Source: an uncultured Verrucomicrobiae bacterium
GTDB lineage: Bacteria; Verrucomicrobiota; Verrucomicrobiia; Chthoniobacterales; JAFAMB01
DNA length: 64,000 nt
Assembly: GCA_963762565.1 (NCBI GenBank)
Contig: CAVXLD010000003.1
Location: 768,001-832,000, forward strand
Reading direction: 5' to 3'
The notes beneath the pieces are model-generated. The model made no database searches. It was not told the origin of the DNA and saw only the letters and a program-made list of their open reading frames with translations. This document shows, one piece after another, positions 1 through 50,099 of the stretch. Both the position numbers and the translations under genes were made by a program. Within the stretch, counting starts at the first letter, position 1; every line of letters begins with the position of its first letter.

Positions 1-2435
1 GAATCGCTTAAGAACCGGTTCTTGCGGGAAGCCCGCGCCGCCGCATCGTTGCGGCACCCGTACGTCGCCTCGATCTACTATCTTGGGTCGACTGAGGCCT
101 CCTATTTCTACGCGATGGAGTTAATCGAGGGACAAACCCTCGACGCATATATCACCCAGCATGGACCGCTCGACGCTAAGTTAGCGCTAGAGATCACCAT
201 CCAGATTACTTCCGCGCTGGCCGCCGCTCATCAGGCTGGGCTCGTTCATCGCGACATCAAACCTGCCAACATTATCCTGACTCGGGACAGCCACGGCCAG
301 ATAACCGCGAAAGTCATCGATTTCGGGTTAGTCAAGTTGACCACTGGCGACGTTGAAGACTCGTCTGCTTCGGAGCCTGGGATTTTCTTGGGAACCCCCA
401 GGTATGCTAGTCCCGAACAGATCAGCTGCGGGGCGGTTGATATCCGCTCGGATCTATACTCGGTTGGGGTAACCTTGTGGCAGATGTTGACTAAATCGGC
501 GCCGTTCATCGGAACGCCTTCGGAAGTAGCCGCTCAACACTTGCAAGCGCCCTTGCCGATCAGCAAATTAAAATACTTCCCCCAGCCAGTGGTGGCGTTG
601 CTAACGCACGTACTGGAGAAAGACCCGAAAGACCGGCCGCAAACGCCGGATGATCTTGTTGGCAATACTCCGAGCAACGCAGCGGAATCTCACAGCTCCA
701 AAATCGCTGACATCCGCGAGTGCCGGTCCGATCCGAGCCCGATTCTACGTAGGCAAGGTAGGGTATGTCATCGGCGCAGCGGCCTCATTGTAGCTGCCGC
801 GTTAGCCTCTTATTTTTATTTTTATCGAGGCGCGCCCGCTCCCGAGATGACCGGAAGATCCGTCGCAATCTTGCCGTTTGATAACGTCGGCGGAGATAAA
901 CAGAACGATTATCTAAGCGACGGCTTAACTACCGAGGTGATTTTCGAGCTATCTAAAATGGCCAGTCTTCGGGTTATCTCGCGAGACTCCGTCCTGGGAT
1001 ACAAAGCTACGCCGGGAATTCCTAGGAAGTCGCTGCAAGAGATCGGAAAGGAACTAAACGTCGATACCGTCCTAGAGAGCAGCATCCAACGGTTGAATGA
1101 TCAAATCAAAATCATCGCCGTGCTCTATGACGCAAAAGCAATAAGCGGATTTGGGGTGCCGCCTACAACCGGGAAATGAAGGATCTATTCGCAATTCAGA
1201 CCGATGTAGCTGAAAATCTGGCTGCCGCCCTGCAGGTACGGCTGACGGCACTGGAGCGCGATCAAATCCAGCGGAAGCCAACGGAGAATTTCACCGCTTA
1301 TGACCTGTATCTTCAGGCTCAAGCTTACTACGGGCTTCGCCACAAAGACGACAATGAGAAAGCGATAGACCTTTTCCGCCAGGCCTTGGAATTGGATTCA
1401 AACTTCGCCCAGAGCTACGCAGGATTAGCGAGCGCCTACATCGATCGATATGTTCGATTTGGTCAGGAAGCGTTTTGGGTGGATTCGGCCATTGATGAAT
1501 GCAAAAAGGCAATATCGATAGACCAGAATCAGGCGTACTCGTGCGTGGTGCTCTCAGGGCCCTGGTTGAAGAACTTGTTTGACCAGGCAACCGAGGCGGT
1601 AAATCAAGCTTTGCGGTTGGCGCCGAACAACAGCGAGGTCAATTTCAGAGCCGGTAGCTTGATGTTAAATTCGGCGGTAAGCCCGGAAGCTTACGCCTTA
1701 CTGCGAAAAGCTTATTCTCTTGATCCCAACGATCCTCGGAAAGCGTATTTGTTGGCTTATATCTGCGCTATCATCGGAGAAGACGACTTGCGCGAGAAAT
1801 GGATGCAAAAAACGATCCAGCTCGAAAGCGATCCCGACCGACGCAAACTACTAGAATGTGAACGGCTGGTTCAAAGACGCGAATACCAAACGGCGTATGA
1901 GGCGTTGAAAAACCTACCCGACCAGCTAGTCGCCTACGGTCCGTCCGCTCTGGATTTACGAATCGAATGCGCAGAACGTTTGGGCGATTGGGCATCCGTG
2001 ATTCAGGGGGTACAGGCGAAAGCCGCCACCGATCTCTCGTCCCAGTTCCATCTGACTCTTACCTATCAATTATCGGGAAATATTACCAAGGCCAGTTCCG
2101 AGGCAACGACACTGCAGACGCGAGCGAAGGCAGTTCTCAGCATCCATCCCACTGATCGCGACGCGAAATATTATCTCGCTTTCAGCGACCGTCTCCTGGG
2201 GCGCAACAATGAAGCGAGCGAGATCTTGCGCCAGCTTTTCCCTGTATCAATCATCCCGTCACCGAATGCGCTGAGCTTATTGCGCGATGATCCTTCCCTG
2301 GATGTTTTTAAGCAAGATGACAGCTTTAAGGAATTGGTGGCGGGGGATGAAAGAGGGACAACGAAACCCGAACTCGTATTGTTGAGATCGAAAAAAACTC
2401 TCGCTAGTGAGACGTTGGCCCGTCGTATTTTTTAA
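1..2435 (+). CDS. Ser/Thr protein kinase with TM segment, TolB-like domain and TPR repeats (5' truncated by window; frameshifted)
   Basis: Kinase motifs HRDIKPANI, DFG and GTPRYASPEQ; hydrophobic LIVAAALASYFYFY; SVAILPFDN..DYLSDGLT TolB-like block; TPR-like helices (AYDLYLQA, AIDLFRQALELDSNFAQSYAGLA) in ORF 1176..2435. Frame breaks near 660-780, 1140 and 2350. Confidence 0.9.
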
Positions 2436-2542
2436 GTCCGCGATAGCGAGTATGGAAACTGTTGATGCACTACGAGAGATCAACTGCTGCATTGAAACTT
2501 CTGACGAGATTTGGTTTATATATTTTTTGAAACGCAACTGTC

Positions 2543-3196
2543 ATGCCTGGCCCATCATTTACAAAATCAAAAAAGGGCGGAGGAGTGCTACCGCTCGGTA
2601 AACGAAACCTTGAAGATCTCGCTACCAAGTTCCTCCCGAATGCTTATCCGACATTCCATAAGCTGGTGACCGACCGGGTCACGCATAGGCCCACCTCAGT
2701 AGCGGTATACGGGATTACTGCAACCAAGACAGGTTCTGATCCCCGATTATCAACACCGTTAGCGCAACTTACACTTGGGGACGTCATCGGACTCTTAGAT
2801 CAATTCAGTTTCCAGATCGATACCTATCTAAGTGGAACTAAGATAAAGGGCGATTCTTATGTGTTGAAAGGTGAATCCCCGAATCCGGGTGAGGCATTGG
2901 CGAACAAGCGCTCATTTACTACCAAGTTAAGCCAACTAAGCTTGCTCAATATTGTCGAATTGCTACCTCAAGCGACATTCTCTTTGAATTCCAAATCATA
3001 CATCATCTCGGGTGGAGTCGAGAACGATGTAGAAGATGAGGCGATAAAGAATTCTCATCTGAAGACCCCGGTTGCCACGCTGACTCCGAAATACCTTCTC
3101 ATACTAACTCGTTTCTTCCGATTTACGAGCATGCCTGCTAACCCTGGGCACGGGACGACTGGCATAGTTGCGTTCAACAAAGTTTTTGGCGAATAG
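2543..3196 (+). CDS. Hypothetical 217-aa protein with three degenerate internal repeats; candidate ATP-grasp substrate/precursor
   Basis: Clean ATG ORF ending 6 bp before the ATP-grasp-like gene. Repeats: LSTPLAQLTLGDVIGLL, FTTKLSQLSLLNIVELL, LKTPVATLTPKYLLILT. Confidence 0.75.
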   Translation: MPGPSFTKSKKGGGVLPLGKRNLEDLATKFLPNAYPTFHKLVTDRVTHRPTSVAVYGITATKTGSDPRLSTPLAQLTLGDVIGLLDQFSFQIDTYLSGTKIKGDSYVLKGESPNPGEALANKRSFTTKLSQLSLLNIVELLPQATFSLNSKSYIISGGVENDVEDEAIKNSHLKTPVATLTPKYLLILTRFFRFTSMPANPGHGTTGIVAFNKVFGE

Positions 3197-3202
3197 CTGC
3201 GC

Positions 3203-3940
3203 TTGATTCTATTAATTAGCCGCACGCAAGACGCTTTGTGCATCGACTTAGCCAGAGGGCTGCAAGAGTGCGGATGCCGGGTGCAAGTGATACCGGAGCT
3301 ATTTCTCAGTCCGGCGGAACTGTCCTGGTGGCTAGGCTCTGAAAGGGGGGCAACCAGCTACCGGTCGCAATCGGGAGAGATGATTTCCGATCAGGATATT
3401 TCTGGCGTTATTTTGCAAAGGAATCCATTCATGCAGGACGATGGGCAGGGGCTTAACGAAGATGTGTATGTCTATGCCGAAAAGGAAGCTGCTCTGCTCG
3501 GTTGGGTATGGGGATTAAGCTGCCCCGTCATAAACCGTTACCCTCCCGAGCTGTGGTTTGAGCCGATCGAATCATTGGAATTTTGGCGCGGGCGGGTAAG
3601 CGTTTCGGACTGGAATTGATAGCCGTGGGGGCCGAGCAAACGGCTTCCTGCTATTCGGTTGCCGTAATCGGTTCACGGGTTATCTGGGACCAAGGCGCCG
3701 CAGAGGCTAGAATGCACGAACGGTCCTCTAATTAAATTCACCAAATCGCTTGGTCTGGCTATCTCGTGCCGGATTACGGATTCCTTGGGTAAGCCGAAGA
3801 TTTCAGGAGTAGAGCCATTCCCGACGTACGATGGGTTCTGCGTGCCAAGCCGGCGGGAGATCGTTACTGAACTGATCCGTTTGATTACTGCGTCCAAAAG
3901 GGAAGTCTCCTCGCGTACCGCAGCCGACTCATGGTTTTAG
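3203..3940 (+). CDS. Degenerate/shortened ATP-grasp-like protein (frameshifted)
   Basis: N-terminus MILLISRTQD..DISGVILQR..AEKEAALLGWVWGLSCPVINR resembles the pre-ATP-grasp domain. Reading across shifts near 3600 and 3725 gives SVAVIGSRVIW..KSLGLA..KISGVEPFP..WF* ending at 3940, overlapping the next start. Confidence 0.65.
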
Positions 3941-4861
3941 TGTGTGGCGACCCATCCGAGCCGGTGACTGCATTCCTTTGCTGCAGGCTGGCGCTGCTCA
4001 AGATTGATTATCACGTATTGGACCTTGGCAAATTTCCGGGAGAATCTGCTTTAGAGTGGATTTGGGCCGATGGCCGGCCTTCCGGGTCAATATCGACCAA
4101 GGATTGGAAGATCGAGTTAGCACAGCTTAGCGGTGTCTATTTTCGAAGCGTCGACGTCGATGAATTGGACGCAGCAGGAGAGACAACGAAACCAACTGGC
4201 GGAGCCTACCCTCGGCCTGAGTTCAACTTGCCGCCATGCTGAACAGCCTCCCGTGCCGAGTCGTCAATCGGCCTGGGGCAACCTACTCAAATCGCAGCAA
4301 ACCTTATCAGGCCCTGATAATTCGCCAATTCGATTTCAATATTTCGCGAACCCTGATCACCAATGATCCTGAAAGCGCCCGAAATTTCTACGACGGATGC
4401 GATGGGAAGGTGATCTTTAAATCCATTGGCGGTCTAAGTTCGATGGTGCGGCTGATGAACAAGGAAGATCTCGAACGCTTGGCGCTCGTGGAGAACTGTC
4501 CGACCCAGTTTCAGGAATATATTCCCGGCGACAATATTCGGGTGCACGTCATCGGCGAGCCGGGCCTGTTTCCGGTCCGGATCCAGTGTGATGCTGTCGA
4601 CTACCGGTATGCGGGACAGGAGGGCTATGCCCGGACCATGGTTCCCACCAACCTTCCTGCGGGCGTCCAGAACAATTGCGTCAGACTCGCGAAAAAAGTC
4701 TTGGACTCGCCATGGCCGGAATCGATCTGAAAGAAACGCCGGCTGGTGAGTATTATTGTTTCGAGGTCAACACTTCTCCGGCCTTCCCGTTTTACGAGTC
4801 GCCGGTCCGACCAACCGTGGCAGATGCTCTAGCGGAATTTCTTGCTGGCAGGAACACTTAA
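3931..4861 (+). CDS. RimK/MvdC-like ATP-grasp ligase (frameshifted into three ORFs)
   Basis: Motifs VVNRP, SKPYQ, RTLITNDP, VIFKS, PTQFQEYI, RVHVIG, DYR, LGLAMAGIDL and YCFEVNTSP across ORFs 3931..4242, 4236..4730 and 4676..4861. Confidence 0.88.
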
Positions 4862-5248
4862 GGAAGTCAGCGCCCGGCCAGGTTTTAAAAACGAAAAACG
4901 CGAGGCTCAGAATCCTTTTCTGAAACCGCGTCTCCAAAAATCATTAATACTGAAACGGGACACCCTCCAATCCACTCGGTGCGGAAGTCCCAACATAGCG
5001 AGCCAGCGCGGGGATGACCCGCAACCAAAACGTAGCCGAATGGCAAAACAGGCCGCTCGGGTCGGAACCGCCCGAGCGGCCACGCTTCGCGAATAGCCAA
5101 TAGCCGATAGCCAATGGTTCTTCGGCGATGGTTTTAGAGGTTCCGAGCGAATCGAAAGGGAAGACCCAGCCATTGAAATGTTGCCAGGCCGCTCTTCGTC
5201 GGTTGGCTATCGGCTATCGGCTATTGGCTATTGGCTATGCGCGTAGCG

Positions 5249-5611
5249 CTAGAATGGCTTATACAGCGCGAGCCATGCTCCTAGCCCCACGAGCACGGCC
5301 AGGTACACCAGCATGGATACTTGGAACCGGGCGAAACGGCGGACCAAAACCGCGGAAGCGCCCGCCAACAACCAGATGATCACCTTGCCCCAGACCCAAC
5401 CCGGTAGGTTCTTGCCGATCCCGAGTTGGATCAACATGATGAATCCGGTAATTAAGAGGAGAATCAGTCCAATGCCGTGCGAGATGGCAAAGATCCGCCG
5501 GGTAGTAGAAGGACCCGGGGAAACCGCATTATAAGCAAGCGCCCCAGCCAACCCCATAAAGGTTAAGGCTAAGGCGATCAGGTGGAAAACTTTCAGGGTT
5601 AGATAGGACAT
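5249..5611 (-). CDS. Small 4-TM membrane protein (SirB2/DUF2269-like)
   Basis: MSYLTLKVFHL..SHGIGLILLLITG..WVWGKVIIW..LYKPF, four hydrophobic segments. Confidence 0.75.
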   Translation of the reverse strand: MSYLTLKVFHLIALALTFMGLAGALAYNAVSPGPSTTRRIFAISHGIGLILLLITGFIMLIQLGIGKNLPGWVWGKVIIWLLAGASAVLVRRFARFQVSMLVYLAVLVGLGAWLALYKPF

Positions 5612-5857
5612 GCGGCGAACTCGCCTGAAGCTCGTTCGCCGAATGACAAATGACAAATGGCAGATGACAAATGGACGATGCGCTGGGTCGCATCTGCGTT
5701 TCCGAATCTGTCATTTGTCATCTGTCATCTGTCATTCCGCCGGCAGCCGCTGATGGGTCAGCAGACAGAATGTGGTCCGTTATCATCCGGCCTGTGCTGC
5801 TGCACTGTCGGCGGCCGCTTGCTTTTACCGAGCCCGACCTGAATGCTGTAAACGCTT

Positions 5858-6664
5858 ATGGATGCTCAACCGATCACTGTTGTCGATGCATTTACCAATG
5901 TCCCGTTCGCCGGAAATCCAGCTGCGGTTTGTGTTCTTAAACAGGAACAATCAGCGGACTGGATGCAATCGGTTGCCAAAGAAATGAACCTTTCAGAAAC
6001 GGCGTTTCTGCTTTCTGAGGGCGACCATATTTATCGTCTTCGTTGGTTTACGCCGAAGGTAGAAGTGAAACTGTGTGGACACGCCACGTTAGCTTCGGCG
6101 CATGTTTTATGGGAGGAAGGTCAGGCAGTCAGCTCTAAGCCTATTCATTTCGAGACCTTGAGCGGGCGACTAACCGCCGAACAGAAGGAGGCAGGTTGGA
6201 TTGCTATGAATTTTCCTTCCCGATTTGTGAGCGACTCGGATGCTCCGCCCGAAGTCCGTCAAGGCTTGGGGGCTGAACCATTATTTGCGGCTAAATATGA
6301 TTCCGGGTACCTGGTAGAGCTCGCTAACAAAGAAGTTTTGCTAGGGATCAAGCCAGATTTTGCCCGGTTAGTCCAAAGCGGGTGCGGCCGCCTCATCGTG
6401 ACTACCCAGGCGCAACCCGGTGACGAATACGATTTCTTTTCCCGGTTCTTTGCCCCGGATGCAGGGATCGATGAAGACCCGGTAACAGGTTCCGCCCATT
6501 GTGTGCTCGGACCGTACTGGGCAACGAAGCTGGGTAAGACCGAACTCCGAGCGTTCCAATGTTCCGAACGGGGTGGGGAACTGCGCTTGTCGGTTCAAGG
6601 CGATCGGACCGTTTTGCAAGGACGCGCTGTGACCGTGTTGAAAGGGCAGTTGTTGGCAAGGTAA
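5858..6664 (+). CDS. PhzF family isomerase/epimerase
   Basis: VDAFT..FAGNPAAV, EMNLSETAF, LRWFTPKVEVKLCGHATLA, EDPVTGSAH. Confidence 0.95.
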   Translation: MDAQPITVVDAFTNVPFAGNPAAVCVLKQEQSADWMQSVAKEMNLSETAFLLSEGDHIYRLRWFTPKVEVKLCGHATLASAHVLWEEGQAVSSKPIHFETLSGRLTAEQKEAGWIAMNFPSRFVSDSDAPPEVRQGLGAEPLFAAKYDSGYLVELANKEVLLGIKPDFARLVQSGCGRLIVTTQAQPGDEYDFFSRFFAPDAGIDEDPVTGSAHCVLGPYWATKLGKTELRAFQCSERGGELRLSVQGDRTVLQGRAVTVLKGQLLAR

Positions 6665-7283
6665 CGGCGAATGGGCGATTGGGCGCACCGGCGAACCGGC
6701 GAAGGGGCGATCGAAGATGGGGAGGGATCGCGTCCTCGCGATCCGTGGTTCGAGGAGGCGCGCGTCGTCTGAGCCCAGGACGTTTCAAGATCTAACGGCC
6801 TGGAATCGTGGTTGGGTCGTTACCCAGTCATACGGCGTCGAATCGGTCTAATCTCGCCATATCCCGGACACACCTGTCGCTCCGCAAATAACGGATCGCG
6901 GGGACGCGATCCCTCCCGGCCTTCGGCCCAATCCCACACACATAAGCAACGCACCTGTCGGCTTTTGAACAGCGTTGCGCAAAAAACGCGACAGCGGACG
7001 GCAGAACGCCTCTTTGCGTATTCACCGCTCCCGGAGGTGGCGACCCCTTCGGCCTCGCAAGCGAGGCAGCGCTCCACGGGTGGCGACCCCTTCGGTCTCG
7101 CAAGCGAGGCAGCGCTCCACGGGTGGCGCCCCTCGGCTCGGCAGTCTTCTGGCACAACGAACCAATAGGCGCAATAGACTAGCGGCTCTGCGACACTTTT
7201 TAGGCCGTTCCGGAGCCTCGCCCCACCAAAGTACGCCTCGGCGCGGCACGCATCCCGCTGTAAGCCGTCTCTTTCGCCAGTTT

Positions 7284-8498
7284 ATGAATTTAGCTGACCT
7301 AAGACGTACGGGACATTGGCCCACTTTGTTGTCTGCTTTTCTTTATTTTGATCTGAGTTTCATGGTTTGGACGGTCCTCGGTCCGTTGGCGGCGCAAATT
7401 GGAGAATACCTCAAATTATCGCCTGGACCAGAAAGGGTTGATGGTCGCAGATCCCGATCTTGGCCGGCGCGGTCTTGCGGATCTTGCTCGGTTTGCTGGT
7501 GGACCGGATCGGCGCCAAGAACACCGGGATCCTGGCTCAACTCATTGTGATCGCCGGTCTTCTCCTGGCGTGGGCGATCGGGCTGAATTCATTTCCAGCG
7601 GCTCTCGCGCTCGGTGCAATCTTAGGTTTTGCCGGCGCAAGTTTCGCAGTCGCCTTACCGCAAGCTGGACGTTGGTACCCGCCCAATCTTCAAGGGTTCG
7701 TGCTGGTTTGGCTGGAGCCAGCAACATCGGGGTGGTGCTCGACAGCTTGCTTGCTCCTCGATTAGCGACCGCCTACGGCTGGCGAACAGTGTTTGGGCTA
7801 GCCGTGATCCCGGCGGTGGTTGTTTTGGTGATTTATGTGTTGGTCTCGCGCGGGAGTTCCGCGGACCGGAGCTCCGCCCAGACGGTTAACCGATTATCTT
7901 GTCCTTGTTACGTGATCAGGACGCGCATTGGTTCTGCTTTTATTATACGGTTAGTTTCGGCGGTTTTGTTGGGCTCGCCAGTTCGTACGTCCTCATCTTT
8001 AAGGATGAATTCGCGATTTCTCCGGTGAGTGCCGGCGACCTGGCCGCCGTCTGCACCTTTGCCGGTGCTGTCCTACGGCCAATCGGCGGTGGAACTGCCG
8101 ACCGGTTCGGCGGTATCCGGGTTCTCCATTGGTTTTATTTCGGGGCAGCCTTGTTCCTGATATTGAGTATACTTGTCTAGCCAGATCGCGACGAAACTGC
8201 TGTTCTTTCACCGCTGCATCTGGAGCTCTGGGAATGGCTAATGGAGCAGTGGTTCAGCTGCTTCCTCAACGTTTCGGGAAAGAAATCGGCTTGATGGCCC
8301 GGCCTCGTTGGCGCAGGCGGCGGAGTCGGCGGTTTTTATCTGGCGAGCTCACTTGGTTATTCCAAAGCCGTGACTGGCTCGTTCACGCTCGGGTTCTTAA
8401 TTTTTCCGGCTCTATGTCTGGTTGCATTGGGCGCTCTCGGCCTGGTGAAAGTTCGTTGGCGTGACGCGTGGGGAGCCATGGCTGATGCGCGGATATAG
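7284..8498 (+). CDS. narK: NarK/NasA family nitrate/nitrite MFS transporter (multiple frameshifts)
   Basis: GHWPTLLSAFLYFDLSFMVW, GAVLRILLGLLVDRIG, GFAGASFAVALPQAGRWYPP, YTVSFGGFVG, LRPIGG..ADRFGG and GMANGAVVQLLPQRF across frames. Confidence 0.88.
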
Positions 8499-8597
8499 GG
8501 GCCTCTTTCGTCCTCGTGCTCGGGGACGCAGGGCGCCTGGGAAAAATGTAGCGCGGAGTAAATGGAAAGGTGAGTGGAGTAACGGAGTGGTGGAGTA

Positions 8598-10218
8598 ATG
8601 GGGGAACTGGCAAAATCAACGATCACCGCAAAGCAGCTGATTGAAGAGGCTCTCGCCGAACAGCGGCTTTTCACGCCGGTAGCTGAGTTTAGTCGCAGGC
8701 ATCCAAAACGCTGGCGAGGGGGATTCAGTTAGTCTCAGTATCAAGATCTGATCCCGCTTTCCGCACCTGGTGCAGGGCGAACAATACGCGTTTACGGTAG
8801 ATCTTGATTCTTGCTCAGGTTGTAAAGCGTGTGTGAGCGCTTGCCATAGCCTGAACAGGCTGATGATGAACCTGGCGCGACGTCGGACTCCTCTTCGGCT
8901 CAACCGTTGACGGGTCGGTGCTACAGACAATCACCGCTGCCTGCCATCATTGTCTGGAGCCCGCTTGCCAACTCGGGTGCCCGGTGAAATGCTTATGATA
9001 AGGACCCAGTAACCGGCATTGTGCGGCACTTGGATGATCAATGTATCGGTTGCCAATATTGCATCTTCAAATGCCCGTATGATGTACCCGAATATTCGCC
9101 GGCGCGCGGCATTGTGCGGAAGTGCGATATGTGCCATCAACGGCTTGGCGTTGGGGAGGCTCCGGCTTGCGTGCAAGCCTGTCCCACTCATGCGATCCGA
9201 ATCACCAAGGTGAGTCGGGCTGAGGTCCTGGCGCAGTCACCCAGTCCACTCGTGCCTGGCGCCACTGACTCTGGGTACACCAAACCCACAACGCGTTACC
9301 TGCGACAAACACCGTTACCCGCCGCTTTGGAGACTCCTCCTGAGCGCTCCATTAGACGCGAGCACGCACACCTGCCTTTAGTGGCGATGTTATGTCTTAC
9401 CCAATGGTCCCTCGGCTGTTTCGTTGTTTTCCTCATCCTAAATCTACGAACGGCGGGAGCGCGTCCGCCTCGAGCCAGCTCACCGCCGCCTCTTTGTTGA
9501 CCGTGACCGGTGTGTTTACCCTTCTTGCCGGAATCGGGGCCAGCTTATTTCACTTAGGCCGGCCGTTTCAGGCCTGGAAAGCGTTTCTAGGTTTTCGGAC
9601 TTCGTGGTTAAGCCGCGAAATTGTGATGTTTGGTGTTTACGCATTTGCGTGCCTGGTATGGAACGTTTGGTTCTTGCGAGCTGCTCTCGGGTGTTTCACC
9701 GCGGTTGATCACGCTATGCTCACCACATTGATCGTTCTCGGTGCGGTCGCTGTTTATTGCTCGATCATGGTGTATGTCGATACCCGCCGCGCTTTTTGGC
9801 GCTGGGCGTTGACTGCTCCGAAATTCGCTGGGACCGCGATATTACTCGGTCTAGGGGCCGGATTTCTTTTTGTGATCGAGATGCGGTAATTGCGACCGGG
9901 TTGATGGCGGTATCGTTGCTCAAACTCGTTTTCGAAGCCGGGTTCCTCCTGATTCATGCCCGGAGCACCGATCGGAGCCCAAACAAACGGAGCGCCTCGG
10001 TCATGCTGCGGGCTTGTAGCCCAACCGTAATCTGGCGTTTCATCTTTGGAGTACTCGGCGGCGTTGTTATTCCGATGCTCGCACTAGGCGCTACACTTCC
10101 TCTCAATGTAAAATTGGTTGCGTTCTGTCTGTGTCTTTCCGGAGAAATTTTAGAGCGCGTTCTATTTTTTGAAGCGGTAGTCCCCGATCACATGCCAGGC
10201 ATATCGCTACGCGAATAG
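8598..10218 (+). CDS. 4Fe-4S ferredoxin domain fused to DmsC/YnfH-type membrane anchor (frameshifted)
   Basis: Cys motifs [26 protein letters not shown] and CDMC..ACVQACP, then [31 protein letters not shown] and [10 protein letters not shown]. Confidence 0.85.
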
Positions 10219-10541
10219 CCAATAGCCAATAGCCGATAGCCAAAATGGGGTCGCCACGCGTGGAGCGTTGCCTCGCTTGCGAGGCCGTGGTGAGCAGGGC
10301 TGAGGACGAGGCACTCCAATAGACGGGCTTCGCTCTCTCGTGCGTATAAACGGCCTGAACTGCGATACAGAGCGCTGACAACAATTGGGTATCCATCACG
10401 ATATTCCTTGTTCACCATCGGCCTCGCAAGCGAGGCAACGCTCCACGGGCCGCGGCCCATTTGGCTATTGGCTATCGGCTATGCGCGCAGCGCGCAGCGC
10501 CCGGTACGCGACCTGCTGATTACTAATCCAAGTAGTTAGGG

Positions 10542-14121: not shown

Positions 14122-14430
14122 CTCCTTGGGGTGGCTTCGATTTTGCGGACAGGGCTCAGGGAGGTTTTTGTCCCGAAGGGACTACAGGACTCAGCCTGGG
14201 GTTTTAACCCCAGGAATACGTTCAAAAACGATCCGCCCTGAAGGGGCGGCAGAAAGTTGGGACCGGCGGCTTGTTTGGTTAGCGTCTTAACTATCTGAGG
14301 AACCGATTCTACCGCCCTCTTCAGGGCGGCGCCTTATTCTACCGACACCTGGGGTTAAAACCCCAGGCTAAGTCCTATAGTCCCTTCGGGACAAAGAGCT
14401 GACAGCTGTCCACAAAATCGAAGCCACTCC
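14122..14430. repeat. Long nested inverted repeat (REPIN/MITE-like)
   Basis: gtggcttcgattttg..gtcccgaagggac..cctggggttttaaccccagg..ccgccctgaaggggcgg is mirrored by ccgccctcttcagggcgg..cctggggttaaaaccccagg..gtcccttcgggac..caaaatcgaagccac. Confidence 0.9.
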
Positions 14431-45029: not shown

Positions 45030-48000
45030 ATGAGAGAGATCACTTCAGGTAGTACCACGAGAACGATCGATGTCTTGGTTGTTGCCGCCTCGGATGTACA
45101 AACAGAAAGTGCCATCACCGAACAAGTGCTTCGTTCGGTCGCCGCGGAGTTCGCTCTCCCGGTCCGCGTCTCTTACTCCAATCCATTCCGGGGGTCCAAG
45201 GAGGACGCTGCCGTCGGACCTGCAGATCTTCAGGATGAATCAACTCCGGTCGTTCTGCCTCTCTTTTGGGACGATCCGACGTCAGCAAGAGATGAGTTGG
45301 CGGAACCGGATCTAACCCAATATGACCTCATCATTTGGCTAGTGTGGTCGAGATTTTCATCCGTCCCGGTCGAGAAACAAATCTTGCCGAACGGCAGTCG
45401 CGCTGGGTTCGCAACGAATGGCGAAATCGATCCCGTCCTGGGTCAGGCGCACCGAATTTTTGACCCCAAGAAGTTACGCGTTTACCGAAATCGTGCGACT
45501 CCCGATTCGCTGCTCGAACCGAAAGAAGCACGAGAAGAGATGTGCCGGCAGTGGGACACGGTACAGGATTTCTTCGCCAGATGGGAGAATGAGGACGAAA
45601 TACAGTTTCGCGAGCGGTGCTATGGATTTCTAGGCTTGGAGGAATTCGCGAATTCGTTCCGACAGCATTTTCGCAATTTTCTGGTCCAGCGGTTAGACGA
45701 CGGAGTTGCCCCGAATAAACCGCCATTGCAAAACCGGCTTCGGCGCTCGAACCCTTTTCGAGGGCTGGACTTTTTTGATTTCGAACACGCTTCCTTTTAC
45801 TACGGGAGAACAAAAGCCATCGGGGAAGTGCTCGCTGCTTTAAAGAAGCAGGCGAAGGCAAAAAAATCTTTCGTGCTGGTGCTTGGTCCCAGCGGTTCGG
45901 GAAAGAGTTCCTTACTTCGGGCGGGCGTTCTTCCCCTGTTGACTCAGGGAGGTACTCCCGTAGGCCACGGCCCGTGGCGCCGGCTGATCATCCGGCCTGG
46001 CATAGGGGATCCTATCGATACACTGACCGCTGCTCTATCAGCGAAATTTGCTCTTCCAGAGCTTCCTGATCCCGCGGCGCCAGACGATTCGTTGAGTCTG
46101 GCGTCCCGATTGAGAAAAGACCCGGAAAAAGCGGCTTCTCGGATAGCAGAGGTGTTGGGAAAGTCGAAGCTGCGGCTGGCGCTCGTTGTGGATCAACTGG
46201 AGGATTTGTTCATCGGGGTTTCGCCGGTGCTGCAGCAGAAATTTATCGCCGCGCTGTCGGCGTTAGCTCATTCTGAGGGAGTCTATGTTATCGCTGCATT
46301 GCGCACCGAATTTTACGCGCATTACCAGCGGTTCCCTGAATTGGCAAACCTGACTTCCGGTGGCGGAATGTATGAACTTCCAATGCCGGCAGAGCACGAG
46401 ATCGCCAACCTGATCCGGTTGCCCGCAGAGGCTGCAGGTCTGCATTTCGAACGGGACTCTAAAACAGGTCGGGGCGTGGACGAGTCCTTGCTCAATGGAG
46501 CGTTGAACAGCGCCGATCGGCTACCTTTGCTGGAGTACGTACTTTCAAGATTATACGATAAACAGCTCGAACGAAAAGACGGGGTGGTGCTTTGGTCTGA
46601 TTATACGCAATTGGGCGAATTCAAGAATGCGTTAGCGCAACATGGAGAGTTCGTCTACTTAACGTTGAATCCCGATGAACGGCAGGTTTTTAAGCTCCTG
46701 ATTCGCCAATTGCTGGCGCCTGGCGCCGCCAAGGAAAACGTCTTACGTCGGCGGCCGGTTCCCTACCACGATCTCGTTTCATCGCCCCAGTTTAATGATC
46801 GCCAGAGCGCTGCGGCCAGAGCGGTAATTGATCGTCTGACTAACGAGGGACTGTTGAACGCCGATACTGATTCAAAACACTGCCGATTAATCAGTCTCCC
46901 CCAGGACGCGTTGCTTAAAAGCTGGCCAAGGCTATCGCGGTTGTTGTCTGAAGACCAACAGTTTTTTAGGATGCGCGATCGGCTGGATGAAAGCCTAAGG
47001 CTTTGGCTCAGTCGAGGGAAGCACGGTCATCACTTGCTCTACGACCGAGTCGCCTTGGCCGAAGCGGCGACATTGGTCAGAGATTTCGGCGCGGAACTAA
47101 GCAAAAATCAGTTAGACTACATTCGTAGGAGCCTCGCCAAGCAAAAGCGACACGGTGGGACGCGAATTTATCTCGGGCTGGCAGCGCTGGTCGTTTTTGG
47201 CCTTTTTGCGGCAATCCTGGCTGCCCAACGATTCAACTCGGCCAATCCCGGCAATCAAGCCAAGCTAGAAGTCCAAGCGGCTCAACCGAATAAGCATCTT
47301 GGTAGCGAAGACACGACCGCACTGGAAGCACGGCTAAAGGAGGCAGAAGAGAAGGTACAATTGGCCCAACAGAATGCGGAACTCGCCAATCAAGAGCGCG
47401 CTGCTTTGGAAACGGAACTGAAGACGGCAGGGGACCAGTTGAAGCAACTGCAAGACGCCGAGTTGAGTGATAGCAACGGGAAGGCACTGCAAGCTCAACT
47501 GAAGGAAACAGAGGAAAAGCTGAAGCAGGCCCACGCAAATTTTGAAGATACATCCAGTCAGCTTACCGCCTTACAGGTCCAACTGAAGCAGGAGCAAGAC
47601 AAAGAGCAAAAAGCCCAAGCAAATGCCGATTCGTTAACGAGTGAACGGAACGCCCTGCAAAACCAACTCAAGGCAACCCAGGGAAAGCTTGAGCAAGCCC
47701 AGACAAATTCGGGCGATACCGCCGGCCAGCTTAGCGCTTTGCAGGCACAACTGAAGCAAGAGCAAGACAAAGAGCAAAAAAACCAGGCTAATGCCGATTC
47801 GTTAACCAGTGAGCGGAACGCCTTGCAAAACCAACTCAAGGCGACCCAGGGAAAGCTTGAGCAAGCCCAGACAAATTCGGGCGATGCTGCCGGCCAGCTT
47901 AGCGCTTTGCAGGCACAACTGAAGCAAGAGCAAGACAAAGAACAAAAAGCCCAGGCAAATGCCGATTCGTTAACCAGTGAGCGGAACGCCTTGCAAAACC

Positions 48001-50099
48001 AACTCAAGGCGACCCAGGGAAAGCTTGAGCAAGCCCAGACAAATTCGGGCGATGCTGCCGGCCAGCTTAGCGCTTTGCAGGCACAACTGAAGCAAGAGCA
48101 AGACAAAGAACAAAAAGCACAGGCAAACGCTGATTCGTTAACTAGTGAACGGATCGCTTTGCAAAACCAACTCGAGGCAACCGAAGAAAAGGCGAAGCTA
48201 GCCCAGGCTGATTCGGGGGATGCAGCCGGCCAGCTTAGTGCTTTGCAGGCGCAACTGAAGCAGGAGCAAGACAAAGAGCTGAAAGCGTACGTAAACTTGA
48301 ATTCTTTGACGAGCGAGAGAGACGCTCTCCAAAATCAGCTGGACCAAGCCGAAGCCCGAGCTTTGCTCGCACAGCAGAACGCCGACCTTGTTAACAGCCG
48401 GCGGAGCGAGGTGGAGACCGAGCTCGAGCAGGCAAACGAGAAGTTGAAGCAAGCCCAGGCAAATTCTGGTGATGCAGCCAGCCAGCTTAGCGCCTCGCAG
48501 GCGGAACTGAAACAGGAACAAGTCAAGGAGCAAAAAGCCCAGGCAAACGCTAATTCGTTAACTAGTGAACGGAACGCCCTGCAAAACCAACTTAAGGCTA
48601 CCGAAGAAAAGCTGAAATTAGCCCATGCGAATTCGGGTGACGCAGCCGGCCAGCTTAGCGCTTTGCAGGCACAATTGAAGCAGGAGCAGGACAAAGAACA
48701 AAAAGCACAGGCAAACGCTGATTCGTTAACTAGTGAACGGATCGCTTTGCAAAACCAACTCGAGGCAACCGAAGAAAAGGCGAAGCTAGCCCAGGCTAAT
48801 TCGGGGGATGCAGCCGGCCAGCTTAGCGCTTTGCAGGCGCAATTGAAACAGGAGCAGGAGAAGGGAAAGAAAGCGCAGGCAAATGCGGATTCTTTGACAA
48901 GCGAGCGGAACGCCCTGCAAAGCCAACTTAAGCAAGCCGAAGCTAAAGCATCGTTAGCACAACAGAACGCTGATCTTTTTAGCAGGCAGCGCAACACGGT
49001 AGAGACCCAGCTTAAGGAGGCGCAAGAGAAGCTGACGCAAGCCCAGGATGATTCTGACGCTACGGCTAACCAGTTTAGCGCTTTACAGGCGCAACTAAAA
49101 CAGGAGCAGGACAAAGAGCAGAAAGCTCAGGCGAACGCCGATTCTTTGACGAGCGAGCGGACCGCCCTGCAAAGCCAACTCAGGCAAGCGGAAGCCAAAG
49201 CAGTGTTAGCACAACAGAGCGTTGACCTTGTTAACAGCCAGCGCAGCGCGCTTGAGACGCAGCTTAAAGAGGGAGAAGAGAAGTTCAAGCAAGCCCAGGT
49301 GAATTCTGGCGATACCTCTGGTGAGCTTAGCGCTTTGCGGGCGCAACTAAAACAAGAGCAGGACAAACTAAAACAAGAGCAGGACAAAGAGCAGAAAGCT
49401 CAGGCGAATTTGGATTCATTGACTAGCGAACGAAACGCCCTGCAAAGCCAGCTCAAGCAAGCGGAAACCAAGGCGCTGCTAGCGCAACAGAATGCCAATC
49501 TCGCAAACAGCCAGCGGAGTGCGCTGGAGGCCCAGTTCAAGGATGCCCAGGAGAGGCTGAAGCAGGCCAACGCGAGTTCTGGCGATACAGCTGGCCAGCT
49601 CAGGGCTTTGCAAGCTCGGCTGTACTCGTCGCAACAGGCCTCTCCGACGCTATCGCCGTCCACTAGCTCATCCGACACGGCAAATCCTCCAGAGTCGCCA
49701 TCCAGTCGAAATGGCGAAGCCTCCGGGAATGCGGAGCCGTTGAAAGAGTTTGTTCTGGGGTATCTGCGAACGGTGGCAAGCGATGATACATCAGTGCAGC
49801 GAGGATATTTTGCGGATCGGGTCAGTTTTTACGGAAGAGGCGTTCTTGATACAGCGAGTCTCGAGGCCTCCACGGAGGAGTACCATCGTGAGTGGCCCAT
49901 CCGAGAATGGACGCCTCGGGGAGAAGCTACCGTAGAGCGTTCTAGCCACCGAGGTCGATTTATTGTCCATCAACCGTTCCGCTGGGTAGTCTCTGACGGC
50001 TCCCGGCACGCCCAGGGGAACGCAACGCTCTACCTTCTGATCCAGCAAGATTCTCAGGGCGAGCTCAGGATCATGAACGTCCATCAACTCGACCGCTAA
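45030..50099 (+). CDS. DUF4062-like + STAND (nSTAND1-like) NTPase + TM + tandem-repeat coiled coil + NTF2-like domain protein
   Basis: NPFRGLDFF..YGR, Walker A GPSGSGKSSLLRAG, Walker B LVVDQLEDLF, LPLLEYVL; TM IYLGLAALVVFGLFAAILA; repeated QLSALQAQLKQEQDKEQKAQANADSLTSERNALQ. Confidence 0.88.
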   Translation: MREITSGSTTRTIDVLVVAASDVQTESAITEQVLRSVAAEFALPVRVSYSNPFRGSKEDAAVGPADLQDESTPVVLPLFWDDPTSARDELAEPDLTQYDLIIWLVWSRFSSVPVEKQILPNGSRAGFATNGEIDPVLGQAHRIFDPKKLRVYRNRATPDSLLEPKEAREEMCRQWDTVQDFFARWENEDEIQFRERCYGFLGLEEFANSFRQHFRNFLVQRLDDGVAPNKPPLQNRLRRSNPFRGLDFFDFEHASFYYGRTKAIGEVLAALKKQAKAKKSFVLVLGPSGSGKSSLLRAGVLPLLTQGGTPVGHGPWRRLIIRPGIGDPIDTLTAALSAKFALPELPDPAAPDDSLSLASRLRKDPEKAASRIAEVLGKSKLRLALVVDQLEDLFIGVSPVLQQKFIAALSALAHSEGVYVIAALRTEFYAHYQRFPELANLTSGGGMYELPMPAEHEIANLIRLPAEAAGLHFERDSKTGRGVDESLLNGALNSADRLPLLEYVLSRLYDKQLERKDGVVLWSDYTQLGEFKNALAQHGEFVYLTLNPDERQVFKLLIRQLLAPGAAKENVLRRRPVPYHDLVSSPQFNDRQSAAARAVIDRLTNEGLLNADTDSKHCRLISLPQDALLKSWPRLSRLLSEDQQFFRMRDRLDESLRLWLSRGKHGHHLLYDRVALAEAATLVRDFGAELSKNQLDYIRRSLAKQKRHGGTRIYLGLAALVVFGLFAAILAAQRFNSANPGNQAKLEVQAAQPNKHLGSEDTTALEARLKEAEEKVQLAQQNAELANQERAALETELKTAGDQLKQLQDAELSDSNGKALQAQLKETEEKLKQAHANFEDTSSQLTALQVQLKQEQDKEQKAQANADSLTSERNALQNQLKATQGKLEQAQTNSGDTAGQLSALQAQLKQEQDKEQKNQANADSLTSERNALQNQLKATQGKLEQAQTNSGDAAGQLSALQAQLKQEQDKEQKAQANADSLTSERNALQNQLKATQGKLEQAQTNSGDAAGQLSALQAQLKQEQDKEQKAQANADSLTSERIALQNQLEATEEKAKLAQADSGDAAGQLSALQAQLKQEQDKELKAYVNLNSLTSERDALQNQLDQAEARALLAQQNADLVNSRRSEVETELEQANEKLKQAQANSGDAASQLSASQAELKQEQVKEQKAQANANSLTSERNALQNQLKATEEKLKLAHANSGDAAGQLSALQAQLKQEQDKEQKAQANADSLTSERIALQNQLEATEEKAKLAQANSGDAAGQLSALQAQLKQEQEKGKKAQANADSLTSERNALQSQLKQAEAKASLAQQNADLFSRQRNTVETQLKEAQEKLTQAQDDSDATANQFSALQAQLKQEQDKEQKAQANADSLTSERTALQSQLRQAEAKAVLAQQSVDLVNSQRSALETQLKEGEEKFKQAQVNSGDTSGELSALRAQLKQEQDKLKQEQDKEQKAQANLDSLTSERNALQSQLKQAETKALLAQQNANLANSQRSALEAQFKDAQERLKQANASSGDTAGQLRALQARLYSSQQASPTLSPSTSSSDTANPPESPSSRNGEASGNAEPLKEFVLGYLRTVASDDTSVQRGYFADRVSFYGRGVLDTASLEASTEEYHREWPIREWTPRGEATVERSSHRGRFIVHQPFRWVVSDGSRHAQGNATLYLLIQQDSQGELRIMNVHQLDR
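47480..49620 (+). repeat. Intragenic tandem repeat, 84/168-bp period
   Basis: ccaactcaagg recurs at 47663, 47831 and 47999 (168 bp = 56 aa); sub-units of 28 aa (4 heptads). Confidence 0.95.

Follow-up and report, generated by a model that had tools for sequence, protein, structure and literature searches.

Several described systems frame the locus analyzed here, a trio of adjacent genes near the left end of a 64,000-nucleotide stretch of DNA from an uncultured Verrucomicrobiae bacterium (contig CAVXLD010000003.1; the whole stretch is hereafter called the window). The precursor of the graspetide plesiocin has a short leader followed by four TTxxxxEE repeats, and the substrate of RimK is ribosomal protein S6, whose C-terminal Glu it elongates. 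In the dimer of PsnB, the plesiocin enzyme, only one subunit binds the core and the neighboring subunit gives Arg101, as described in a preprint; the same preprint reports that Arg213 recognizes the ring-forming acid, that the D(F/W)R loop takes part in catalysis, and that both are conserved and required for activity. The corallotide precursor CorA (group 15) is a protein of ~22 kDa with five K-x-x-x-D repeats, which become Lys-Asp isopeptides through the TIGR04187-type enzyme CorB (Carter, Ramesh, Saad, Mubarik, Mitchell, ACS Chem Biol 2026, PMC13097080). That paper also catalogs graspetide group 39, a group predicted with RODEO, and describes transglutaminase-fold proteins in groups 33 and 39. 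Makarova et al. (2022, PMC8939145) described loci of a "branch 8", traced by them to Iyer et al. 2009, which typically encode a truncated, inactive ATP-grasp and for which no precursor was predictable.

The trio in the window consists of a gene for a four-repeat protein (gene 1), a shortened ATP-grasp paralog (gene 2) and an ATP-grasp ligase (gene 3). We read it, with a probability of roughly one half, as a graspetide-type crosslinking trio in which gene 3 would be catalytic, gene 2 its dead heterodimer partner and gene 1 the substrate. We regard the trio as a form, specific to its lineage, of a widespread family of enzyme pairs, relatives of which are cataloged as predicted graspetide group 39. 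Already known are the enzyme pair, through its relatives in that uncharacterized group, and the truncated inactive partner, noted by Makarova et al. (PMC8939145); new here is the lineage-specific, upstream third component, a 23-kDa protein of four repeats, where relatives have a downstream protein of 130-190 amino acids (aa) or short peptides plus a PqqD adaptor. In full-text literature searches we found no experimental study of the ATP-grasp pair or of the dead partner's role, and a truncated ATP-grasp was mentioned only by Makarova et al.

Results

Layout of the trio

The three genes are co-directional and tightly coupled, as the earlier note on this DNA had described. Genes 1 and 2 are separated by 6 nucleotides (nt; 3197-3202), and the ATG of gene 3 (3931) lies inside the end of gene 2, whose TAG stop occupies 3938-3940, giving the overlap string ATGGTTTTAG. 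A second locus, L001 from Verrucomicrobiota, has the same trio in the same order and with the same spacing, and all three of its genes are intact. The flanks of L001 also match those of the window, with a gene for a kinase with tetratricopeptide repeats (kinase-TPR) and a gene for a 135-aa membrane protein. Chance adjacency of the three genes was ruled out by the presence of this same trio in L001. Three more pairs of gene 1 and gene 2 homologs have equal longest-contig values (9427, 3431 and 2739), which suggests that the members of each pair share a contig.

The ATP-grasp enzyme and its shortened paralog

Every element of the ATP-grasp motif set listed for gene 3 in the earlier note is present (SKPYQ, RTLITNDP, FKS, FQEYI, RVHVIG, GIDL and FEVN, together with DYR), distributed over three reading frames in the window. 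A search with the largest piece of gene 3 retrieved 1896 cluster representatives with E ≤ 1e-3, of which 661 had E ≤ 1e-10; P0043, a protein of 308 aa with 73% identity, was the best match. A profile of the gene 3 family aligned over its full length with PsnB (7drm; E 7e-49, 170 bits), followed by MdnC, PruB (9bou), AMdnB, CdnC and MdnB with E values from 5e-39 (MdnC) to 9e-33. RimK-type chains were matched at E 3e-13 to 5e-12 (~50 bits) and LysX at ~2e-8. When the ortholog P0043 was scored against NCBIfam, TIGR04187 ranked first (125.6 bits), then MvdD (111.8), MvdC (82.6) and, in fourth place, rimK_fam, whose cut-off was missed (57.7 against 143.4 bits). The pieces of gene 3 read from the window itself scored 20.1, 60.4 and 26.9 bits against TIGR04187.

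All 30 family members compared have the nucleotide- and Mg-binding residues K164, Q195, D264, E277 and N279, as do the window pieces, and the family-invariant set also includes R204, H206 and D223-Y224-R225. Overall, the window pieces keep 20 of 21 invariant residues, with P139 changed to S as the exception, and they keep R72 as well. In the HMMER alignment R204 pairs with PsnB Arg213; D223-Y224-R225 pairs with the PsnB DFR loop, with Tyr replacing Phe/Trp. R72 is found in G-V-Y-x-R, and its equivalence to PsnB Arg72 was assigned by eye, the HMMER register being off by 3 at that point. Because the full-length match to PsnB (E 7e-49) far exceeds that to RimK (~1e-12), we place gene 3 with the macrocyclases. 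Judged from its sequence, gene 3 is an ATP-grasp of the graspetide macrocyclase type and not of the RimK/LysX/GshB type, so the graspetide assignment made in the earlier note stands, and the grouping with RimK, LysX or GshB that would have spoken against it was not seen.

Gene 2 found no match in Pfam, NCBIfam or PADLOC scans. Its N-terminal piece retrieved 13 longer homologs, 10 of them 246-262 aa long, which is the length of the window gene 2 once it is read through. Profiles of gene 2 and gene 3 aligned in hhalign with a probability of 98% (E 2.7e-13; residues 1-236 against 1-308), and the central segment is missing from gene 2, where gaps take out the SNxSKPYQ segment, the strand that bears K164, the QFQE hinge and the DYR loop. 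P and A in gene 2 stand opposite R204 and H206 of gene 3, and gene 2 likewise lacks D264 and N279. An AlphaFold2 (AF2) model of gene 2 (predicted local distance difference test, pLDDT, 64) had PsnB (E 4.7e-8) and MdnC as its top PDB folds, at low TM-scores of 0.31-0.40. From these alignments and the modeled fold, gene 2 is predicted to be a shortened, catalytically dead ATP-grasp paralog that lacks the central domain and catalytic residues, which bears out its description in the earlier note as a pseudo-ATP-grasp.

Distribution of the enzyme pair and its third components

A locus scan with a 10-sequence alignment, covering one genome per species, confirmed at least 581 relatives of gene 3, the best 80 of which were analyzed as loci. 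Three of these were too short for an upstream count; in the 77 with at least 800 nt upstream, a gene 2 hidden Markov model (HMM; E < 1e-3) detected a gene 2-like open reading frame (ORF) directly upstream and on the same strand in 65, from many phyla. The end of this ORF often lies 3 nt past the ATP-grasp start. The gene 2 HMM is narrow and was unmatched in 12 of the 77 loci, in some cases apparently because of broken frames. One protein, P0079 (558 aa), joins what by eye is a gene 2-like N-terminal half to an ATP-grasp domain at 264-555. Together these sequences indicate that the active plus inactive ATP-grasp pair is a conserved, widespread unit. Other architectures were seen among the relatives: in P0062 an ATP-grasp is fused to a PqqD domain, and in P0052 the ATP-grasp is extended at its C-terminus by ~275 aa that have no Pfam match.

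We classed the third component of the 80 loci with HMMs built in this analysis. Some third component was found in 66 loci: type A in 33, type B in 24, type C in 8 and gene 1 in one (L001), with none in the remaining 14; two of the 33 type A assignments (L050 and L067) are at odd positions and may be artifacts. Type A proteins are 130-190 aa long and encoded directly downstream of the ATP-grasp. Their N-terminus reads K-[QE]-P-F-[VI]...D-R-P-E-V, followed by D-T-P-x-S-E-L-x-V-R-D-L..I-L-G; the middle is a Lys/Glu-rich region of low complexity and the C-terminus is coiled-coil-like. The type A C-termini in the sister loci are neither conserved nor end in Glu, and type A proteins had no Pfam or NCBIfam match. 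Type B proteins carry a PqqD domain, and short precursor-like ORFs lie near 22 of the 24.

The motif [KR]-[QE]-P-F-[VI]-x(3)-[DL]-R-P occurs within the first 25-40 residues of type A proteins (L002-L026) and type B proteins (L005, L028-L055). The N-terminal motifs of type A and of type B PqqD proteins aligned in hhalign with a probability of 92% (E 8e-7), and the proteins are otherwise unrelated. We speculate that this common motif may be a docking element on the ATP-grasp pair.

Several features of the type B and type C loci were observed alongside this classification. The type B loci of Nitrospirota (L028-L044 and others; for example L031:959-10116) resemble lasso-peptide clusters: besides a lasso-type PqqD chaperone and a lasso B2 protease they encode an HprK-related kinase, an NTP_transf_5 nucleotidyltransferase and an ABC transporter, together with one to six short precursors with a Y-x-x-P...T-G leader. 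In the 6-kb flanks of type B loci the ATP-grasp pair was seen and no asparagine-synthetase-type cyclase was noticed, although no scan was aimed at one; in the literature we found no description of the ATP-grasp pair in such a lasso-like arrangement. At L027:6850-9610 (Acidobacteriota) short precursor-like ORFs stand in tandem (a motif search finds five of them, an HMM six); they have a near-identical leader, Y-T-Q-P-L-L-T-K-H-E-P-L-L-N-L-T-G, and cores rich in Lys, Asp and Glu. The type C loci (L045, L046, L062, L063, L066, L069, L071 and L073) encode a conserved protein of ~100 aa directly after the ATP-grasp, ~900-1250 nt after the ATP-grasp start, with an N-terminus like V-E-N-W-S and no Pfam or NCBIfam match. 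The eight type C enzymes form one clade, with a support of 95 in the Shimodaira-Hasegawa-like approximate likelihood ratio test (SH-aLRT).

A quick maximum-likelihood tree was built from 73 of the 80 enzymes; the other seven were omitted because their translation from the match start was not 270-360 aa long. The tree has three clades that match the third-component types. The L001 enzyme is nested in the type A clade (SH-aLRT 97) on a long branch (1.07), and members of that clade all have a downstream type A protein. The place of gene 1 in the module is supported by this position, because the L001 enzyme nests in the type A clade and a type A protein is listed as a precursor by Carter et al.

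The four-repeat protein

Gene 1 encodes a protein of 23.5 kDa with an isoelectric point of 9.55 and no Cys or Trp. It is rich in Ser, Thr and Lys, which make up 26.7% of its residues compared to 10.7-18.2% in seven other ORFs of the window. This agrees with the earlier note, as do the acidic patch ENDVEDE and the absence of both the PFFARFL leader and the TxKxPSD core of microviridins. Among 354 candidates we found 29 homologs with 56-96% identity, 28 of them 217-238 aa long; none has a family name, and one is labeled Verrucomicrobia. A profile search with the gene 1 alignment returned 30 proteins, of which one was new, and no bridge to the type A proteins. Gene 1 had no match in Pfam, NCBIfam or PADLOC, and the best score in an ESM Atlas search, 0.83, is under the level taken as a lead. 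The gene 1 family thus appears, by its sequences, to be narrow and lineage-restricted.

The earlier note described gene 1 as repeat-containing, and comparison of its parts agrees. An internal repeat of ~45-55 aa is found four times: in hhalign, repeat 1 aligned with repeat 2 at a probability of 92% (E 7e-7), repeat 1 with repeat 3 at E 0.004, and repeat 0 with repeat 1 at E 0.06. The AF2 model of gene 1 is of low confidence (pLDDT 49) and suggests that each repeat is a helix followed by a hairpin. The helix element resembles the type A motif DTPxSELxVRDL..IL, with hhalign E values of 0.022, 0.19 and 0.076 for repeats 1, 2 and 0, and a possible homology of gene 1 and type A proteins is best treated as a lead. 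Apart from this weak match, gene 1 has no clear leader motif.

Within the gene 1 family, Lys213, the C-terminal Glu217 and residues E160, D162 and E164 of the acidic patch are invariant. Among the conserved K/S/T and D/E positions there are three i,i+4 pairs, K40-D44, K100-D104 and K213-E217, which were picked after reading about corallotide and are a small excess over the ~0.7 such pairs expected by chance. At E ≤ 1, the HMMs for types A, B and C and for short precursors had no match anywhere in the 64-kb window, and no short precursor was seen in L001. Gene 1 belongs to the module in this lineage, as it is kept with the pair in the one orthologous locus available. It did not prove to be the conserved upstream partner that the earlier note had looked for in homologs, being found beside one of the 80 related loci; what does recur is some third component, in 66 of the 80.

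When the complex of the L001 trio was predicted and gene 1 was scored as the partner, the result was 0.41 (0.41, 0.02 and 0.57 in the individual runs), compared with 0.01 for the best of three controls. Of 157 solved complexes, 116 reach the mark for this score, as do 2 of 215 mismatched pairs, and the part of that range at or below 0.60 holds only 18 of the 157 solved complexes and both mismatches that passed. At least 27% of contacts are common to the runs, and the partner pLDDT is at least 68. We take this prediction as weak support for an association of gene 1 with the enzyme pair.

Reading frames and surrounding genes

In the window, gene 2 is read in frame 2, then in frame 1 (~3601 to 3721) and then again in frame 2, and the motifs of gene 3 are split over frame 1 (3931-4239), frame 3 (4236-4727) and frame 2 (4676-4861). 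This amounts to four frameshifts in the 1.66 kb of genes 2 and 3, one of the four in a homopolymer of at least five bases. The features of the trio are collected in Table 1.

Table 1. Genes, frameshifts and gene 1 repeats of the trio, in window coordinates
Feature	Position	Strand	Description
Gene 1	2543-3196	+	Intact ORF, 217 aa
Gene 2	3203-3940	+	Shortened ATP-grasp paralog (predicted); two compensating frameshifts here; 247 aa in intact orthologs
Gene 3	3931-4861	+	PsnB/MdnC-type ATP-grasp ligase (predicted); two frameshifts here; 308 aa in orthologs
Gene 2 frameshift 1	3595-3601	+	Frame 2 to frame 1
Gene 2 frameshift 2	3721-3728	+	Frame 1 to frame 2
Gene 3 frameshift 1	4221-4239	+	Frame 1 to frame 3
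Gene 3 frameshift 2	4692-4697	+	Frame 3 to frame 2, at A6 run
Repeat 0	2585-2728	+	aa 15-62; weakest copy of helix-plus-hairpin unit
Repeat 1	2729-2890	+	aa 63-116; nearly invariant G-T-K-I-K-G-D (K100...D104)
Repeat 2	2891-3046	+	aa 117-168; acidic patch ENDVEDE at its end
Repeat 3	3047-3193	+	aa 169-217; C-terminal invariant K213-x-x-x-E217

Frameshifts cluster in positions 1-10500 of the window. The kinase-TPR gene upstream of the trio is split at ~1134-1179, an MFS transporter (6975-8500) is spread over at least three frames, and the frames of Fe-S/DmsC-like genes (9021-10218) overlap. The ORFs between 10.5 and 64 kb are intact and long, one of them with 1689 aa. We favor locally poor sequence because these unrelated neighbors in the first 10.5 kb are broken as well; for the frameshifts of genes 2 and 3, local errors in the sequence are the likelier cause and decay the less likely one.

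The neighbors of the trio are the kinase-TPR protein, the 135-aa membrane protein and a PhzF-like protein, and no protease, peptidase or exporter is encoded in its immediate flanks. The kinase is a Ser/Thr protein kinase with a TPR C-terminal half, encoded directly upstream of gene 1 on the same strand (window 1-2435; L001:1531-4389), a linkage seen in these two close relatives only. Promoter, terminator and Rfam scans gave nothing linked to the trio. An anti-phage defense system was ruled out, as PADLOC found no match. Elsewhere in the window, two convergent Acido-Lenti-1 RNA motifs (RF01687) lie ~135 nt apart at 14169-14214 (-) and 14348-14393 (+), scoring 39.8 and 40.2 bits where the gathering score is 37, and the intact 1689-aa ORF at 45030-50099 (+) encodes an nSTAND1 NTPase domain (E 1e-77).

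Discussion

We hypothesize that the trio forms crosslinks by the chemistry of the graspetide family. By analogy, gene 3 would use ATP to phosphorylate an Asp or Glu side-chain carboxylate, and a Lys amine or a Ser/Thr hydroxyl of the same polypeptide would attack the acyl-phosphate, so that the crosslink formed is an isopeptide or an ester. Gene 2 and gene 3 most likely would form a fixed asymmetric heterodimer in which gene 3 alone is catalytic; we propose a heterodimer because the genes are adjacent (65 of 77 loci), natural fusions exist and the PsnB homodimer is asymmetric. Gene 1 is a reasonable candidate for the substrate and most likely would carry intramolecular crosslinks, possibly at its three conserved Lys to Asp/Glu pairs. 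Because no protease or exporter stands beside the trio, the crosslinked protein may itself be the product, with no cleavage to a peptide. A more detailed version of this model seems to us unlikely to hold in all its parts: a protein-sized graspetide is made by an obligate live/dead heterodimer, each repeat supplies the docking helix TPLxxLxLxDVxxLL and receives one (i, i+4) Lys-to-Asp/Glu isopeptide, the product remains uncleaved and intracellular, and the dead paralog fixes an asymmetry that is transient in PsnB.

A number of observations weigh against the crosslinking trio, most of them against gene 1 as its substrate, a role that rests on adjacency, analogy and a weak complex score. Gene 1 adjoins only one of the 80 related ATP-grasp loci, it resembles type A proteins weakly and over short stretches, and in hhalign it lacks the N-terminal P-F-[VI]...R-P motif of types A and B. 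Its AF2 model is poor, one of the three complex runs scored 0.02, and the Lys pairs were chosen with corallotide in mind. Conservation extends along the whole of gene 1 (mean column identity 78%), as in a folded protein and not as in a leader with a variable core. This conservation over the full length would also suit an accessory or adaptor protein, that is, a scaffold, activator or recognition subunit whose true substrate is encoded elsewhere. Such an arrangement has precedents in the family: the third protein of 24 of the 80 loci has a PqqD domain, which serves recognition of peptides that are made by ribosomes and modified after translation (RiPPs), and 22 of these 24 loci have separate short precursors; P0062 is a direct ATP-grasp-PqqD fusion; Carter et al. 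(PMC13097080) describe graspetide synthetases that depend on a partner protein; and Makarova et al. (PMC8939145), finding no precursor predictable for the branch with the truncated partner, suggested substrates elsewhere. We nevertheless consider an adaptor role for gene 1 unlikely. Pfam and NCBIfam detected no PqqD or other recognition domain in gene 1, the window holds no conserved short ORF or match to a precursor HMM and none was seen in L001, residues able to form crosslinks are abundant in gene 1, and in the nearest enzyme clade the third protein is scored by RODEO as a precursor.

The remaining alternatives concern gene 3 and the state of the locus. P0043 falls below the NCBIfam cut-offs of the macrocyclase models TIGR04187, TIGR04184 and TIGR04185 (125.6 against 350, 111.8 against 475 and 82.6 against 425 bits), and RimK models and structures are significant but weaker matches (rimK_fam 57.7 bits; RimK chains E ~1e-12). 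Gene 3 could be RimK-like and add amino acids such as Glu to Glu217 of gene 1, the invariant last residue, near the likewise invariant Lys213, without any internal crosslinks. We regard this as very improbable, given that the similarity to macrocyclases is full-length and far stronger (170 against ~50 bits), that the Arg213 equivalent and the D-Y-R loop, both typical of macrocyclases, are invariant, and that type A C-termini in sister loci are neither conserved nor Glu-ending. A more serious doubt is raised by the frameshifts in genes 2 and 3, which could mean that the module is dead in this organism: it would be a decaying remnant with four real frameshifts and no modification here, whatever the family does elsewhere. 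Four shifts in 1.66 kb, only one of them in a homopolymer of at least five bases, fit decay, as do the long intact ORFs at 10.5-64 kb, which show that the assembly is not uniformly error-prone. Still, unrelated genes of the first 10.5 kb are broken too, the two shifts of gene 2 compensate each other, gene 1 is intact, and gene 3 retains 20 of 21 invariant residues plus R72, so we hold decay to be rather unlikely, if less so than the adaptor, and keep the crosslinking trio as the preferred reading.

If gene 2 and gene 3 do form a fixed asymmetric heterodimer, the pair would offer a naturally occurring test of the half-of-sites mechanism that has been put forward for PsnB. A 23-kDa, four-repeat and apparently uncleaved substrate, if confirmed, would move graspetide chemistry from peptides towards whole proteins, for which corallotide is the only large characterized example so far. 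The family would also combine one enzyme pair with a swappable third component, be it a protein with repeats, one with a coiled coil, a PqqD adaptor accompanied by short peptides or a small protein of 100 aa, and would, if this is true, be a good system in which to study substrate change in RiPP enzymes. The earlier note had called the locus an undescribed class; that holds for the lineage-specific upstream third component and does not hold for the pair, which is widespread (65 of 77), has relatives in group 39 and a counterpart in branch 8 and, in CorA, a precedent for a large substrate.

Among known systems, RimK is alike in its ATP-grasp fold and whole-protein substrate, and gene 1 ends in an invariant Glu; the match of gene 3 to RimK is, however, much weaker than that to PsnB (~50 against 170 bits) and misses the rimK_fam cut-off. 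The microviridin enzymes MdnB/MdnC (MvdC/MvdD) likewise come from two adjacent ATP-grasp genes, act on a ribosomal substrate and have the same enzyme fold, but both are described as active, one forming esters and the other amides, whereas here one partner is predicted to be dead, and the gene 1 sequence has neither the microviridin leader nor its core. PsnB (group 2) is the best solved relative of gene 3: the equivalents of R72 and R213 and the D-x-R loop are kept, and its dimer, as described, is asymmetric. It differs in being a homodimer of active subunits where the trio would pair an active subunit with a shortened dead paralog, and the plesiocin precursor is short compared with the 23-kDa gene 1.

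Corallotide CorA is similar to gene 1 in size and, with its K-x-x-x-D repeats, recalls the three conserved K-x-x-x-D/E pairs, a likeness drawn from its description and not from its sequence. Corallotide clusters, which are limited to Corallococcus, also encode a 2-oxoglutarate oxygenase and a protein with a beta-lactamase fold, and no dead ATP-grasp partner is reported for them (PMC13097080). In branch 8, as in genes 2 and 3, an inactive truncated ATP-grasp stands next to an active one (PMC8939145). The branch 8 taxa and lengths given there (Streptomyces, 304 aa; Cellulomonas; a beta-proteobacterium) fit our type C plus unclassified clade, in which the Streptomyces locus L072 has 303-304 aa, and from taxa and lengths alone we infer that the two are the same. 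That clade is the sister of the one that holds gene 3, and branch 8 is linked to peptidases (PMC8939145), in contrast to the immediate flanks of the trio, which have none.

The closest relation appears to be with group 39, of which the accessible text of PMC13097080 presents no characterized member and does not discuss the role of the second, dead ATP-grasp. The trio differs in the upstream position of gene 1, in its four repeats and in its lack of an N-terminal P-F-[VI]...R-P motif; the gene 1 motifs RFFRF and IENDVE have 0 matches among the supplement rows listed (PMC13097080), and no transglutaminase-fold protein is encoded beside the trio in the window or in L001, though a lasso B2/Transglut_core3 protein is found in the type B locus L031. 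The likenesses are nonetheless specific. In the supplement of PMC13097080, short precursors from Nitrospirota are identical to the small ORFs of L028, accession pairs appear under "multiple graspetide synthetases in BGC" (biosynthetic gene cluster), and a Bradyrhizobium type A protein is entered as a precursor. A 65-aa precursor from Verrucomicrobiota in the same material has, by eye, an N-terminal F-I-P-P-N-D-R-P motif that resembles a docking motif, together with one unit similar to a gene 1 repeat. The L001 enzyme, for its part, nests on its long branch (1.07) in the type A clade of this same enzyme family.

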